DNA of 64,000 nucleotides from Promethearchaeia archaeon (lineage in GTDB: Archaea; Asgardarchaeota; Lokiarchaeia; Sigyniarchaeales; SOKP01): NCBI GenBank assembly GCA_029856145.1, contig JAHQWK010000020.1, forward strand, positions 32,001 through 96,000, in the 5' to 3' direction. A program made the translations under genes and the position numbers. Shown here piece by piece: positions 23,018 to 54,264 of this stretch. The notes below the pieces were generated by a model. That model was not told where the DNA came from, searched no databases, and saw nothing but the letters and a program-made list of their open reading frames with translations. How positions within the stretch are numbered: position 1 is the first letter of the stretch; every line of letters starts with the position of its first letter.

Positions 23018-26000
23018 TTATTTTTTTAATTTCCATTGTCTTTTACCCATTTTTGATTCAACTAGAACTTTTTCTTTACGTTCTAATTCCTTGAGTTTAA
23101 GCTGGAGATATCGGGCATCCATCATATCTTTAATTTTTAATTTGAAAATGAGATGCTTAATAGTTTGCCATTCATCAGATAAAACATTTAATATTTTTTC
23201 AGTTGTTATGATAGGTAATGTAGTTTGTTTTTGTTTTGGGGGTACTGGTTTATGTATAGGTGGAGTCTTTTTAGGAGTTACCTTACTTGGCGTTTTTCCT
23301 TTAGAAATTGGCAATTGCACTTGTTTTACAGGTATAGTATAGGGACTAACTTTAACTGGTTCTGGAGGTTTTAATTCTATTGGTTTTACTTCAATAGGTT
23401 TTTTATATGATTCTATAATTTTGCCAATAATAACTGTTTTTGTGTCTTTAGATAATAGGCTAATATTATAATCATTACAATATTCAATTAATTCGGTTTT
23501 TGTCCAATTTTTAAGTGTTTTCTCAGTGAATAATTCTTTTTTAGTTTCAACTTTCTTAGCAACTGGTTGTAATTCAGAGGGTTTTTCTATCACTTTTTCC
23601 TTTTTAATAGCAGTTTCTTTAATTTCTCTTGCTTCTGAAGATTTCACAACAGGCGTAGGTTTTTTACCTATTGCGTTCCTCATTAAATCTTCCAATTCTT
23701 TTTTGTCAAGCTTAGATTTATGTATACTCTCACCTTGAGACGCAATATTATATAGGCTGTTAACAAATATTGGTATATATTTTTCTATTAGGCTAGCTCT
23801 CTTTTCGCTTTTACGAAGATTTGCTTTTCTATTGAGATATATTCTTAATCTTCTTCCTATTGCTTCAAGGCAAAACTTAATTTCTTTTATTAAATTTTCA
23901 TCATCAGCCAATGCGTTTTTTGATTGGGATTTAAACATTAAATGCACAAAAGGTCCAGAAACATTAACTAATAATTTTATTGGTCCTTTTGGCAAGCTAT
24001 TATCATAAGTATCAAGGTTGTAGTTTTTCCAATTAACTGCTTGAACTGCTTTTGTGATAGCGCAATCTGCACTATCTCTTAATTTCGGTGTTCTATTTAC
24101 AAATCTAGATAAAACATCCCTAGACCGTTTGGGAACTTCTAAATTTCTTGAATAAGCCAGTACAGCTTCTACAACATAAGCTAAACCTTTTCCACTTGTG
24201 GGTGCTCTTGTTTCTGCTGCTACAAAATCATCATCCTTCGTATAGTTTTCAATGAAATATTCAAATACACCATGGTAGGTATCTATAGAATCTATGTCAG
24301 AGTAAGTGAGAAGATCATCAATAACTTGTTTTACTTGCTGTTGATCCGTTATTTCATCAACGATATCAATGGTTCCCAATATCTCTGAACCTAAATTAAT
24401 GACCTCTTCTGGATTTATTGAAATGTTAATGATTGCATCATCATCAATCTTGATCCCTTCTTCTAATAACGTTCTCTTTTTGTCTTCATGTAATAATTCA
24501 AATATCTGATTAATTTTATCAACGGGTCCAGCAAAGTCATCTATATTTTCTGAAATTCTTAATCCAATTTCTTTAATTAAAGTATTCTCCAGAGTTGAGC
24601 CCCCTACTGGAATTGCTGTGTCCGTTGGAGGAGCCATATACTTGATAGATTTAAACGCTAGGAATAGAGAATTAAACTGTTCTTTTGTTAATTCAATAGG
24701 TTTAACTTTAGATATAAGGACTTTATTAATAAGATCTTCAAAATCTGTTCTGTTTTTTAACTTTTTTAACTCAATCAATCCTTCTTTTGAGTCTTTAAAC
24801 AATGTGTTTAAATCTACTTTAATTTTATCCTTTTGATTTCTAATATCATCTATCTCTTTCAATAATTTTTTAATTTCTCTTTCAATATTCTTTATTTCTT
24901 TTTGAGTTTCAGTTTTTTCAATACGTTTATTTAGTTTCTTTATTTCTTTGTTTATTTTTTCGTAATCTTTATTGGATTTATTGTAATTAGTGATTAATTT
25001 CCAATAATTTTCTTTTAGATCTTCTGATGCGACTTGATAAATAATTAATTTATCTCTCGGTTTATCAGAACGACCGAAAACCCGTTTTTCATTTATCATA
25101 AAGTTTATTGTATCTGTCTTTTTCTGTGCTAAATTCACAAATCCCTCTTTTAGAATAAGTAAATTTAATCGGTCCTGAAGATCTCTTTCAGCAATATAAA
25201 TAATTTCTTTAGCTGTTTTTGAACTCATTCTTACAAAATTATCTTGTAAAAATGCAGAAATTGATTTATTTTCTGATTTTGTAATTAAATCTTGTAGGTC
25301 CCCTATATTAACTGAGGAAGGATGAGACTTAGCATATTTAGGTTCGTCTGGGAAAGAAGTTGCTAATCTTCGGTAAATTTTCTCCTTTCCCTCTGGATCA
25401 ATATAAATAATTGTCACATGAGGATTCATAAATGCAGTTTCTTCAATATATTTCTCAACATAACCTCTGACATATTTTACATTTAAATAATTCAATTTAA
25501 TATAAGTACCATGAAGAAAAAAGCTGTCAATATCTGTTGGATGAATTAAATACTTTTTCTCATTTTTAGATGTGGTAAAAAATTCTGTTACTGTAGCATA
25601 AACATTGTCAATTGATTTTGATACTGTGATAATAGGTTTACCAGTTGTATTTTGAGCATCGCTAAACGCGCTTGGGGCTCCAAATCCTTGACTACCTCTA
25701 GTTTGCTTTAATTCCATAGATTTTGATGAGGCGAGATATTTTCCAAATTTTCTTAGATCAATTTTTGACATTCCAGTCCCATTATCGAAAATTTCAAAAG
25801 TATAACTCATGATATTTTTCTGACTGATTTCAGACGTTAAAAAAGATTGTGCTTCATATTCTCTAATACGAACCCCCACTATTGGTTCTACATCAATGAT
25901 ATATTCAACGGGTTTAATGATTTCTTGCATATCATCTATTATTCTTCTAACTTCTTCTTCTACTTCCAATTCTTCTTTATCACTTATTTCTCCAGATTCT

Positions 26001-38754: not shown

Positions 38755-38856
38755 GGGCCTGTAGATCAGTGGAAGATCGCTTGATTTCATTAAGCAAGAC
38801 GCTTAATTTCAAGATTCGCATTCAAGAGGTCACGGGTTCAATTCCCGTCAGGTCCA
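38755..38856 (+). tRNA. tRNA-Ala (anticodon CGC) with a 30-nt intron at position 32/33 (38786-38815); CCA not encoded
   Basis: Acceptor stem GGGCCTG/CAGGTCC with G3:U70 and A73 (Ala identity), D arm GATC/GATC, T arm ACGGG-TTCAATT-CCCGT. Removing 38786-38815 restores CTTGA-TTCGCAT-TCAAG. AT-rich TATA-like sequence at 38731-38745. Confidence 0.92.
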
Positions 38857-49426: not shown

Positions 49427-50383
49427 CTAATCAAAACTTTCTAATAAATTTTTTAAATTTTCTGCTAACAATGGTAAATATTCATAGGATTTAATTTTTA
49501 CTTTCTTATTTAAACAAAGCGCGACCAAATATAGTCTTGCATCTCCTATATCTAATTTTCTTAGAAAAATAATTCCTTCTTTTTGAAATTCTGAATGTTT
49601 CTCTGGAAATTCTACATTTGTTACAATATCAATTGTATTTATATCCCATTCTTCTAGTTTTTCTAATGCTTGAGTTAGCCTCGGAGCTATAGACTCGCAA
49701 ATTTCCTGATAAGCTTGATTTGTGCTTCTGCTAGCAATTATAAAACAATTCTGATCCAATAGCAGCGTAGAGCTATTATAAGTCTTGCCCATATAATCTT
49801 TCAGTAAGGTTTGAAACATTTCAGATTTGTGAGTAGCATAAAAAGCACCATCAGAGAAAGCCTTCAATAAACTTGGTTCATCATATATTGAAGTTTTTAA
49901 GATAGAAAATTTAACATCTTTAATAATAGATGAAATTTCATGATCTAAAGATTTGATGTTATTAACAATATTTTTATTATTTTTAATATCCGGATCACAT
50001 TTATGTAGTAAGATCAAGAGTTGAAAATTATCAGGGTGTGATTCTGAGGTAATATTTATTATATCTTTAAGAAAAACTAAGGCTTCTTCAAATTTTTTAG
50101 GTGCTTGGATATCTATAACATAAAAAATTGATTGCATTTCCGTAAAATACTTACTTTTTTCACCTATATATATTTTTCTATAACTCTTTTGACCACCTAA
50201 ATCCCAACGGACTATTGTAGTACCTAATAATGAGTTTGTATGAAGAGTTCTTTTTGCCTTTATAGTTGGTTTAACTGTAGTTAGTAAACTAAATTTCTTA
50301 TCTAATATTAATAAAATTGATGTCTTTCCACCACTTTCTAAACCACAGAAAAGTATTTTTTTATACTCTTTTGATTCGCTCAT
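49427..50383 (-). CDS. Arf/Rag-like small GTPase fused to a C-terminal roadblock/longin-like domain
   Basis: G1 GLESGGKTS, G2 KPT, G3 WDLGGQ, G4 HKCD, G5 TSI, then an alpha/beta C-terminal domain (STLLLDQNCFIIAS). Confidence 0.85.
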   Translation of the reverse strand: MSESKEYKKILFCGLESGGKTSILLILDKKFSLLTTVKPTIKAKRTLHTNSLLGTTIVRWDLGGQKSYRKIYIGEKSKYFTEMQSIFYVIDIQAPKKFEEALVFLKDIINITSESHPDNFQLLILLHKCDPDIKNNKNIVNNIKSLDHEISSIIKDVKFSILKTSIYDEPSLLKAFSDGAFYATHKSEMFQTLLKDYMGKTYNSSTLLLDQNCFIIASRSTNQAYQEICESIAPRLTQALEKLEEWDINTIDIVTNVEFPEKHSEFQKEGIIFLRKLDIGDARLYLVALCLNKKVKIKSYEYLPLLAENLKNLLESFD

Positions 50384-50411
50384 ATCTTTTATAGGATAAT
50401 ATTGAATTTAT

Positions 50412-51230
50412 TTATGCTTTAACTATTTTAATTTTTATTTTTATTTTATCAATTTTTTCTTTAAGTCGAATTTCTCTTAGTTTTCTTGGAAAATTTAAAT
50501 CTAGCTCATCAAAAATAAAACCACTTGAACCCTTTGGTCCTTCTATAATTTTTAATTTAGATGGAGATATATTTCCTTTATAAAAAGAAATAATTTTACT
50601 ATTACCAAGAAATTTTCTTTTTAGATAATGACCAAAAGTATTACAAGCAACAATAGGGATTCGATTTTCAAGAGCACGCGCTTGTAAATAAACATGCCAA
50701 TTTTCCATTCCATCCTCCCTTATTTGAGTTGGAGAAAATAAAAGATCAGCACCATTTTCGACAGCCAATCGAGGAGTTTCAAAAAAAGCCATATCAAAAC
50801 AAATAAGAATTGTGAAACAATAGGAGCTATTAATTTTAAACACCTGTAATTCTTTACCTGGTTCAAAGTGTTCACGTTCATAAGCGTATAAGTGAATTTT
50901 ATCCTGCCTTCCAATTTCCTCACCATTTTCATCAAAAAAATAGGATGTTATTGCAGGTTTTTTTGAACTAGTTCTTTTCTCCCAAATTGCTCCTGATATA
51001 AATTTTACATTGTATTCTTTAGCTAAATTTTTTATAAAAGAATAATCATTACCTCTTTGTTGTTGGAAATTCTGAGTTGGATCTCTAAGAAAAGGAACCC
51101 ATCTTTCCGGGAGGCAAATTATATCGCAATTTTTGTGCGTTTCCAATAATTCTTTTAGAATATTTTCTATTTCATTATAACATTTTGTTCTTTTTTCAAA
51201 TAATTCAGGTTGAATACAGGCTACTCTCAT
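50412..51230 (-). CDS. Carbon-nitrogen hydrolase (nitrilase superfamily)
   Basis: Triad motifs LPE, DKIHL, ICFDMAF; ARALENR. Confidence 0.92.
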   Translation of the reverse strand: MRVACIQPELFEKRTKCYNEIENILKELLETHKNCDIICLPERWVPFLRDPTQNFQQQRGNDYSFIKNLAKEYNVKFISGAIWEKRTSSKKPAITSYFFDENGEEIGRQDKIHLYAYEREHFEPGKELQVFKINSSYCFTILICFDMAFFETPRLAVENGADLLFSPTQIREDGMENWHVYLQARALENRIPIVACNTFGHYLKRKFLGNSKIISFYKGNISPSKLKIIEGPKGSSGFIFDELDLNFPRKLREIRLKEKIDKIKIKIKIVKA

Positions 51231-51238
51231 TTTTAAAA

Positions 51239-51994
51239 TTACTGAGTGTTTTCTTTATTGCTAATCTCTTCTATTATATCAAATAATTCATTTAAATTAG
51301 AGATCTCATAATTAGGCTTTATATCTCCTTGATCATTAAAATCTGCATTATAAGTGTCATATTTACCTCCACGATGAAGATAAACGCTATAAATATTGTT
51401 TAAATTAGCTGGAATTATATCTTTATCAATACGGTCTCCTACATATATTGTTTCTTGACCAATAACTCCAAATTTTTTTAAACAGTAATTGAATAGTTCT
51501 GGATTAGGTTTTTTAATACCAATTTCATCTGAAATAACTACTAAATCAATTAATTTATCAACATTAAGTCTTAAAATCTTTTCATATTGCTTTATAGGGA
51601 TTCCATCAGTTATAATGGCTGTTTTTATTGATAATTCTTTTAATTTATTTAAACTTTCTTCTACATCATCATAAAGCGTTATTGAATTAACCTTTTCTGC
51701 GTGGTATGCCATTACTGCTGCTGCTATAAATTTAAAACCATCGTTATAAGAGATATATTCTATGTTATCCTCCATTTGATTCAATCTTCTAATGAAGTAA
51801 TTATAATGTTTTGACGAATTTGAACCATATTCTTTCACAATTTCCTTTAATATCCGAACTGCTTTCTTTTTATCTATATTTAGCCCCAAATTAATCATTG
51901 CATCGAGACCTTTAATTCTTGCTCTTTCAGATAACACGGTTGAATCAAAAAGACAATCATCCAAGTCAAACCCAATTAATTTTATAGGACTCAT
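51239..51994 (-). CDS. HAD-superfamily hydrolase (class IA)
   Basis: FDLDDCL, IITDG, KKP, YVGDRIDKDI. Confidence 0.92.
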   Translation of the reverse strand: MSPIKLIGFDLDDCLFDSTVLSERARIKGLDAMINLGLNIDKKKAVRILKEIVKEYGSNSSKHYNYFIRRLNQMEDNIEYISYNDGFKFIAAAVMAYHAEKVNSITLYDDVEESLNKLKELSIKTAIITDGIPIKQYEKILRLNVDKLIDLVVISDEIGIKKPNPELFNYCLKKFGVIGQETIYVGDRIDKDIIPANLNNIYSVYLHRGGKYDTYNADFNDQGDIKPNYEISNLNELFDIIEEISNKENTQ

Positions 51995-52201: not shown

Positions 52202-53398
52202 TTGAAAACCATCGTTGCTTTGTCATATTTTCATCGTAAAATTGGTCCATTAGTCTTTTATTCTTATCCAAAAGATATGTTAGAAAGAGAATTATCACTT
52301 AAAATTGCAAACATTATGGATCAGCAATTTAGCGAAGGTTTTTTTACACATTCTTTTGAAAATTTAAAATCATTGAATTATTACTTCGAGATTCATTCAG
52401 ATTGGGCTAGAGGAAATAAAGAAATGTTGATGGTTTCAACAATTCTTGATCAGCAAATCTCTACTGAAGATGAAGAAAAAATCTCAATTTTATGTACAGA
52501 GTTTTCAGAACAATTACAATCAAATGAAGAGATTTATACTGCATTTTATATAAATGATGTAAATAATTTTGATGAAGAAGATCAGGAAAGCATAAGAAAA
52601 AACGAATCCTTAATAAAAGCGTGGGTAGAGAATCTATATTGGTTTATTATAGAAGATACACGGGAAAAAACTGAAGAAGAGGAAATCGCAATCTTATTAA
52701 ATGATAAACATATATTTATGACCTTAGAGAAGTTGTCCGAAGGTCCTATCTTATTAGAAGGGCTTAGAGAATGGTTCATTGAAAATTTTCCTGAAAAAAA
52801 TTTTAATGAAATTATTGAAATATTAGATGAACGACAATTTATTTTTATTAATCAAATAGGCTTAGTAGAGAAATATGTACTTTTAGTAAAAGAAGTAAAT
52901 GCTGAAAGAATACCACCAGATAGCATCATTGAATATATTGATGATAAACCAGAATTGATTGAATTGCTTCTCCCTAAAGTTCAAGAATATTTTAGTGAAT
53001 ATGAAAAGAAAACTAGGGAAGACATAAAGGAAGATGCTTTCACATTATATCAAATTATGGCAGATCCAAAAAAGTATAGTGTTCTTTCAGAATTAAGAAA
53101 TGGATTAATATCAAAAGATAAATTACCAAAATTAGTATCGAAAAAATCTTTGGATTCATTAATGGAAAATATTGAATTCTTAAAGAAATTTGATGTAATT
53201 GAAGAATTAAATTATAATAGTGAAACTTATATTGTTTTAAAGACCAATTTGCAAATAACAACTGCATTTCCAGAATGGATGAGAAAATTATTACCAAAAG
53301 AATCTGAACCCGTGGTAGCAGATAAGTATAAAGCAAATAGAAATAAAAGTAAAAAAACTTCAAAAAATAAAAAAAGTAAAAATTCTAAAAAAAAGTAA
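52202..53398 (+). CDS. Longin / uDENN-like domain protein (Asgard eukaryotic-signature type)
   Basis: N-terminal VALSYFHRKIGPLVFYSYP (F-x-x-x-x-GP) and ARG...MLMVS longin pattern; wH-like C-terminal segments; basic tail. Confidence 0.7.
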   Translation: MKTIVALSYFHRKIGPLVFYSYPKDMLERELSLKIANIMDQQFSEGFFTHSFENLKSLNYYFEIHSDWARGNKEMLMVSTILDQQISTEDEEKISILCTEFSEQLQSNEEIYTAFYINDVNNFDEEDQESIRKNESLIKAWVENLYWFIIEDTREKTEEEEIAILLNDKHIFMTLEKLSEGPILLEGLREWFIENFPEKNFNEIIEILDERQFIFINQIGLVEKYVLLVKEVNAERIPPDSIIEYIDDKPELIELLLPKVQEYFSEYEKKTREDIKEDAFTLYQIMADPKKYSVLSELRNGLISKDKLPKLVSKKSLDSLMENIEFLKKFDVIEELNYNSETYIVLKTNLQITTAFPEWMRKLLPKESEPVVADKYKANRNKSKKTSKNKKSKNSKKK

Positions 53399-53433: not shown

Positions 53434-53685
53434 ATGCCTAAAAAAGAAGAAACTCATGAGGATTTAAAAAATCTTTTAGGTTATATGGGAATTGAAATAC
53501 TGGTAGCAATTAATAATGGAGCTAAAAATTATGAAACAATAAAATTATTTTCTGGCTTACCAATTTCTTGTATAAACGGGAGAATACCAGTTTTACGTGA
53601 CTTAGGTCTTATAAAACAAAATAACGATGAATATTTTTTAACAGAGAAAGGAATTCATTTTCGAAAAAGATTAGAAGTAGAATAA
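53434..53685 (+). CDS. Small winged-helix DNA-binding protein
   Basis: EILVAI...LRDLGLI...YFLTEKG wHTH pattern. Confidence 0.75.
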   Translation: MPKKEETHEDLKNLLGYMGIEILVAINNGAKNYETIKLFSGLPISCINGRIPVLRDLGLIKQNNDEYFLTEKGIHFRKRLEVE

Positions 53686-53695
53686 TTTATAAAGT

Positions 53696-53772
53696 TTGAC
53701 ATCAGTTTGGGGCGACAATGTCATCGCTACCGAGCAAGTAGCTAGCTTTGTCATAAGTTCATCATCTGTCAA
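53696..53772 (-). ncRNA. Box C/D guide sRNA, predicted to direct 2'-O-methylation of the 23S rRNA P-loop G (E. coli G2251 equivalent)
   Basis: Minus strand reads TTGACA-G-ATGATGA (box C, 53759-53765)...CTAG (degenerate D')...CGATGA (C')-CATTGTCGCCCCAAA-CTGA (box D, 53702-53705)-TGTCAA. It has a 6-bp terminal stem, and the D guide is complementary to UGGGGCGGCA. Confidence 0.82.
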
Positions 53773-53778
53773 TTGATA

Positions 53779-54264
53779 CTAATCTTCTTTACTATTTAAT
53801 TCTTGATTATTAATCTCCTTTTTATAGTACTTTCTCATATAATATCCGGGTCGTTTTAAACCACCACATTCATCAATTATTTGCTTTAACCCTCCTTCTT
53901 GCGAAATGATGTTTTCATATCTAATATAATCTTGTTGTGTAATTTCATTTCTTTCCATTAAGTAATCTAAAATATTAATTGCTTCTTCATTTTTTGTACA
54001 CCTTCTTAAAAAGTCAATCACTCCAGGATTAAATAATTCATTAGGATATAAATTATTAGATTCCTGAGGTTTTTCCTCATTTTCTTGCTCTACATCCATA
54101 TCAATTGAATTCATTTTTATTGATTTTTTTCTTGTTGAAATTTCTTCAATCAAATGAGGGAATTGCTTATTAAGTTCATCTTTATCATAAGATATTTTTA
54201 ATCCGTTTGATTCTTCAATTTCAACTTTTTTGAGATCTTTTCTATTTTTATTTTTTTTTTTCAT
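53779..54264 (-). CDS. DUF2095-like conserved archaeal protein
   Basis: FPHLIEEI, PGVIDFLRRC...EEAINILDYL, KRPGYY. Confidence 0.75.
   Translation of the reverse strand: MKKKNKNRKDLKKVEIEESNGLKISYDKDELNKQFPHLIEEISTRKKSIKMNSIDMDVEQENEEKPQESNNLYPNELFNPGVIDFLRRCTKNEEAINILDYLMERNEITQQDYIRYENIISQEGGLKQIIDECGGLKRPGYYMRKYYKKEINNQELNSKED

Follow-up and report, generated by a model that had tools for sequence, protein, structure and literature searches.

The stretch of DNA analysed (64,000 nt, hereafter the window) belongs to a Lokiarchaeia genome of 3.55 Mb, ~30% GC and 97% completeness, and carries a predicted box C/D sRNA gene on the minus strand at 53696..53772 (~77 nt with its terminal stem, both ends predicted). 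Upstream on the same strand lies a DUF2095 gene (PF09868, 53779..54264); the sRNA starts 6 nt past its stop codon, a placement that the original prediction had described correctly without naming the strand, whilst 10 nt separate the other end of the sRNA from the stop codon of a small, convergent winged-helix gene (53434..53685, plus strand). Homologues of this winged-helix gene (41% identity) adjoin the sRNA in two families; the orientation of the pair is convergent in f1, and in f2 (loci L057-L059) co-directional. Also in the window, an open-reading frame at 52202..53398 (plus strand) encodes a 398-aa protein with no Pfam match, divergent from minus-strand genes at 49427..51994 encoding HAD, nitrilase and Rag-like GTPase proteins, and a tRNA gene at 38755..38856 (plus strand) has a ~30-nt insertion in its anticodon loop, probably an intron; elsewhere in the genome, ARAGORN called a tRNA-Sec (contig C8, 12915-13007, minus strand).

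Read along the minus strand, the sRNA consists of the 5' arm of a 6-bp terminal stem (53767..53772, pairing with 53696-53701), a single G, a box C AUGAUGA (53759..53765), a 12-nt D' guide (53747..53758), a degenerate box D' GCUA (53743..53746), an inner hairpin (53726..53742), a second single G, a box C' AUGACAU (53718..53724), a 12-nt D guide (53706..53717), a box D CUGA (53702..53705) and the 3' arm of the stem (53696..53701). The perfect boxes C and D, the terminal stem and the GCUAC/GUAGC hairpin are all present as originally described, the hairpin having a 5-bp stem and a 7-nt loop and providing the canonical stem of a C'/D' kink-turn. The description of the inner boxes stood in part: box C' has the conserved AUGA core, whilst box D' is non-canonical and is placed by positional homology, the position reading NNGA in most relatives.

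The genome holds two sites with this architecture in a naive scan, shuffled genomes hold 0-2, and the fold z-score of the sRNA is only -1.7, so the architecture alone carries no significance. The other scan site (contig C23, ~25940-26000, plus strand) combines a box C, AUGA, CUGA and a 4-bp stem, in a count that is at chance level. No Rfam family matched the sRNA at gathering level; its weak matches were all to C/D RNAs, headed by snR67, snoU31b and TBR7, all guides to the P-loop, and a match to SNORD43 at the 5' end, made up of box C and a few bases, was taken as chance.

We judge the sRNA to be real because its boxes, guide cores and stem pairing are conserved. Pattern searches matched 98 of 135 genomes in the family and 81 of 301 in the phylum, with no match to a reversed control pattern in either set; matches in three Streptococcus and one Erythrobacter had no box D and were set aside as chance. 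The same locus holds the sRNA in at least 29 congeners. Two cultured Asgards, MK-D1 and Loki-B35, have homologues, and carriers from the same order include Promethearchaeum syntrophicum MK-D1, Ca. Lokiarchaeum ossiferum and Ca. Harpocratesius repetitus. An alignment of 12 sequences from two families showed no variation in box C, box D, the AUGA of box C', or the UGACAA and GUCGCCCCA cores. The terminal stems, of 3-17 bp, keep their pairing in sequences unrelated between lineages, and the inner stem similarly varies in sequence with its pairing kept. One genome (G303) contained both f1-type and f32-type copies (L124, L125), the latter on a 4.5-kb contig that is probably binning contamination. 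In f33 (L070, L071) and f22 (L130) the P-loop guide is accompanied by a different second guide, a case of guide replacement within the family.

As the host's own 23S rRNA is absent from the assembly, targets were read from the 23S genes of congeners, with E. coli numbering checked against rrlB. The P-loop in six congener 23S genes is GGCUGGGGCGGCUCAC; in this genus it reads ...GGGGCGGCU, being CUGGGGCGGCU rather than the ...GGCA that had been assumed for archaea. The D guide pairs with 23S 2249-2257 over 9 bp (8 Watson-Crick and one G-U), which places D+5 (C53710) opposite G2251; the predicted pairing with a single G-U was thereby retained, whilst its tenth pair is absent in the genus. By the nine-pair rule (PMC6009581), a duplex of 8 Watson-Crick pairs and a G-U falls below the threshold. 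Each guide duplex taken alone is within chance; of the trials with shuffled guides, 48% and 29% equalled the top score. The pairing check named with the original prediction, of both guides against rRNAs and tRNAs, returned sites in the P-loop and helix 89 of congener 23S genes with duplex scores at chance level.

The assignment to G2251 follows from guide/target covariation across Asgard families and not from the score of any single duplex. Guide position -2 is C in families f2 and f27, where 23S 2248 is G, and G in f32, f33, f13, f18, f5, f22 and f31, opposite C2248 wherever the 23S was found. Families f2 (MK-D1 and Loki-B35 among its members) and f27 show a flip of the P-stem pair, with G2248-C2256 in place of C2248-G2256 (L031-L033, L107-L109, L116). 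One f27 guide is fully complementary over 11 nt, including a G at -10 opposite C2256, the guide and the 23S in this case being from two different genomes within the same genus. Most f1 guides have A at -2, a mismatch with C2248, and the f2 duplex mispairs U x C at 2256; the f2 guide tracked the P-stem flip at -2, not at -10. In the search pattern CGCCCCA and CUGA were fixed, and guide positions -2 and -10 were free. This covariation amounts to a handful of events, as kin are not independent. With the E. coli numbering verified, position -2 covarying with 23S 2248 and the protein machinery encoded in the genome (below), the predicted register of D+5 on G2251 was upheld, and the D guide, if functional, very likely directs methylation of this nucleotide. 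G2251 is Gm in T. kodakarensis (PMC12124282), and is a predicted sRNA target in three archaea of the seven species covered in PMC4644070.

The original prediction had assigned no target to the D' guide, a gap that is filled by a covarying match in helix 89. When guides were scanned against the 23S of their own genomes, the D' guide had one homologous site, on the 5' strand of helix 89, which was also its top-ranked site among the rRNA of the genus and the host's own tRNAs. The duplex comprises six Watson-Crick pairs at 2457-2462, an A x C mismatch at 2463 and four further pairs at 2464-2467, 10 of 11 bp against congener 23S. Guide position -3 is A opposite U2458 in f1, f2 and f13, and G opposite C2458 in f32 and f7; at -9/-10, f2 has U/C opposite A2464/G2465, whilst the host genus has (U or C)/U opposite G2464/A2465. 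The most stable duplexes of f1 guides are those with f1 targets (-10.6 vs. -6.5 to -9.1 kcal/mol). Pairing of the D' guide with helix 89 is, from these complementary changes, a well-supported prediction. Its register places A53751 (D'+5) opposite U2460, and where a clear D' box is present (CUGA in g19, f13 and f32), position -5 is A, opposite U2460. Methylation of exactly U2460 is less sure, because box D' is degenerate and the register varies among relatives, and we favour it by a narrow margin: D' reads GCUA or GUUA throughout the host subclade, and in genus g20 the spacing from guide core to D' varies by several nucleotides.

Other placements of the D' guide were rejected. Helix 71 (U1946, near yeast Gm2288) pairs well in f2, forms 5 bp in the host genus and has a mismatch at +5 in f13; 23S 2592-2599, 16S 1494-1500 and the host's own tRNAs scored lower and exhibited no covariation; and reading the D' box as CUAG, with G2459 as the target, is disfavoured by the position of NNGA in homologues. 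The 23S genes themselves were variable in places: many f1 genes have variable hairpin insertions near helix 91, and f32 genes near helix 89 (L062-L065, L103, L110-L113, L117), whilst the 23S of two genomes (G061 and G064) diverges abruptly past ~2600, possibly owing to an intron or misassembly.

The loop of the inner hairpin, the single unusual feature in an otherwise ordinary guide RNA, is itself conserved, its core GCUC being found in nearly all 98 family homologues although the stem changes. A candidate extra base-pairing element in this loop, CUUGCUCG (53731..53738), is complementary to 23S 2463-2470 over 8 bp with one G-U, flush with the 6-bp core of the D' duplex. The complementarity is perfect in genome G077, and G250 has an A in place of G opposite U2467. 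The match was found post hoc, 6% of shuffled inserts equal it near either target, and most homologues have only 4-6 bp of loop/23S pairing, against a 23S target that is invariant in the family, with no compensatory changes. Such pairing would also compete with the 5' half of the D' guide and would need the loop to open. An intramolecular GAGC/GCUC hairpin, considered as the cause of the loop conservation, is possible in g19, g20 and g22, not in the host subclade, and was rejected. The suggestion that the loop gives extra base-pairing to 23S beside the D' duplex, as in yeast, is accordingly a tentative one. If the element exists, it probably evolved within the Lokiarchaeia family, as f2 and other Asgards have no such loop.

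Fibrillarin and Nop5 are encoded by adjacent genes in the host genome, which also encodes L7Ae-family proteins; no methylase of the SpoU family, to which bacterial RlmB belongs, was found there. Taken with the boxes, stems, conservation, complementarity and covariation observed here, these protein genes suggest that the locus is a dual-guide archaeal box C/D sRNA for 23S G2251 and probably U2460, a reading to which we give a probability of roughly 85%. From the known mechanism we infer expression of the sRNA, RNP assembly and methylation: L7Ae would bind the C/D kink-turn, and probably a weaker C'/D' one too, Nop5 and fibrillarin would assemble on the L7Ae-bound sRNA, and both guides would pair with pre-23S rRNA during assembly of the large subunit. 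With the D guide on the P-loop, fibrillarin would methylate the ribose of G2251, and with the D' guide on helix 89, most likely that of U2460. Both nucleotides lie beside the ribosomal catalytic centre.

The locus might instead be a conserved terminator or protein-binding hairpin whose boxes arose by chance, as it fills the gap between convergent genes and the C/D architecture is at chance level genome-wide; however, four boxes and two guide cores are kept although context, orientation and guide order change, and the guides covary with rRNA, which makes this reading highly improbable. If the locus is a guide RNA, its D guide could target a 16S strand of helix 30/31, GGGGCGACA (~E. coli 988), instead of or besides the P-loop. 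This site would account for the invariant U at -10 and forms 9 Watson-Crick pairs and a G-U in family f2, but in the host genus it reads AGGGGAGACAG, where an internal G x A mismatch breaks the duplex. Neither the A at -3 nor the covariation of -2 with 23S 2248 can be accounted for by a 16S target, and snR67, U31b and TBR7, which guide to the P-loop in eukaryotes, have the same U; we regard a 16S target as improbable, and the P-loop as the target of the D guide. A stronger challenge is that methylation is confined to the D guide, the D' arm being a folding chaperone or a relic that binds helix 89 and leaves U2460 unmethylated. The degenerate box D' of the subclade and the variable spacing in g20 would fit such an arm, as would the lack of any mention of Um2460 in the literature searched, yet in swapped-order homologues the helix-89 guide precedes a perfect CUGA, with A at -5. 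The A-U that the degenerate box places at a kink-turn position also has a natural precedent, as Kt-23 carries A-U at the position in question. Guides that pair and do not methylate are documented in Pyrobaculum (PMC6009581), whereas divergent C'/D' motifs stay active in yeast (PMC3116282). On this evidence a D' arm that pairs and does not methylate appears unlikely, and a dual guide remains our preferred reading.

How the sRNA would be transcribed is more finely balanced. A possible promoter (53793..53808, minus strand), with a purine-rich, BRE-like run followed by TTAAATA, lies in the last codons of DUF2095, and conservation within the subclade is 96% for this block (-43 to -28 relative to box C), whereas the codons on either side reach 74% and 83%; however, such conservation could reflect constraint on the DUF2095 protein, and TATA-like boxes arise easily in a genome of ~70% AT. 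T/A-rich boxes at -33 to -36 are found in homologues from f32, f13, f22, f31, f5 and f7, but no consistent upstream box is present in g20 or in the second g1 subclade. The spacing from the DUF2095 stop varies between 10 and 66 nt, and in family f2 the sRNA lies downstream of the winged-helix homologue, on the same strand, both of which favour a promoter of its own. Against this, most archaeal C/D sRNAs have no promoter of their own, and co-transcription with an upstream gene is common (PMC7994747). A sigma-70 promoter scan was uninformative for an archaeon. We rate transcription from a promoter within the DUF2095 tail and processing from the DUF2095 mRNA about equally probable.

Both the class of sRNA and the G2251 target are already known in archaea (PMC4644070, PMC12124282), whilst no paper on Asgard C/D sRNAs was found in the literature searched, an incomplete collection. 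Dual-guide sRNAs for G2251 such as Pca sR36 (PMC4644070) share the class, machinery, P-loop target and G-U wobble with the sRNA described here, but have other partner guides, 50-60 nt between termini and no inner hairpin. The closest likeness is to Sac-sR110 of Sulfolobus acidocaldarius, which was identified by RNA-seq with no target given (Dennis et al. 2015, PMC4644070, Additional file 1). When its pairing was computed here against the 23S alignment of the same study, Sac-sR110 came out as combining a P-loop guide (D+5 = G2251) with a helix-89 guide (D+5 = U2460), which assigns predicted targets to an sRNA published as an orphan. The two differ in that the P-loop guide is at D' in Sac-sR110 and at D here, and in that Sac-sR110 has a 3-nt K-loop in place of the hairpin found here, which is closed by a stem and has a conserved loop. 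The sRNA is a member of an old family of P-loop and helix-89 guides reaching Sulfolobus. Within this family the helix-89 guide comes first in f1 and f2, and the P-loop guide in f5, f7, f13, f31 and f32; the simplest reading of these sequences would be that the order was circularly permuted on the branch leading to f1 and f2. Guide-order permutations are known in Pyrobaculum (PMC6009581), and the present family is a clean natural case within one sRNA family. Gm2251 and Um2460 are predictions that can be tested in P. syntrophicum MK-D1 and Ca. L. ossiferum, which both have homologues.

The inner loop may have its counterpart in the yeast snoRNAs snR70, snR75 and snR13 (van Nues et al. 2011, PMC3116282), which combine a short guide duplex with a conserved D'-C' loop able to pair with rRNA adjoining the target, in some cases over bases to which the guide itself pairs, and in which the extra pairing raises methylation up to five-fold; it was shown experimentally in yeast, and is predicted here from sequence. 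If true, the loop pairing would be an archaeal counterpart of a feature of yeast and human snoRNAs. One might go further and see a snoRNA-like, asymmetric design, in which box D' is degenerate, C'/D' is closed by a stem, the loop extends the 6-bp core to a contiguous 14-nt grip on helix 89, and the P-loop arm may share ancestry with snR67/U31; this fuller picture is more speculative than the loop pairing itself. The equivalent nucleotide (yeast Gm2619, human Gm4196; PMC11542601) has the eukaryotic guides snR67, U31 (SNORD31), snoU31b and TBR7; a table of that paper equates Gm1950 of H. marismortui with Gm2251, which we take to be doubtful and leave unused here. In Rfam, the consensus guides of snR67, snoU31b and TBR7 contain the 10-mer of the sRNA, UGUCGCCCCA, wobble U included, at scores for snR67, U31 and TBR7 (20.5/55, 19.3/37 and 17.2/45 bits) far below gathering. 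The eukaryotic RNAs have no helix-89 partner guide and their likeness to the sRNA is confined to the guide, so orthology and convergence are indistinguishable, and the common 10-mer is compatible with common descent. In Lokiarchaeia, the P-loop G2251 is predicted to be methylated by means of an RNA guide, as in eukaryotes, and not by RlmB, as in bacteria.
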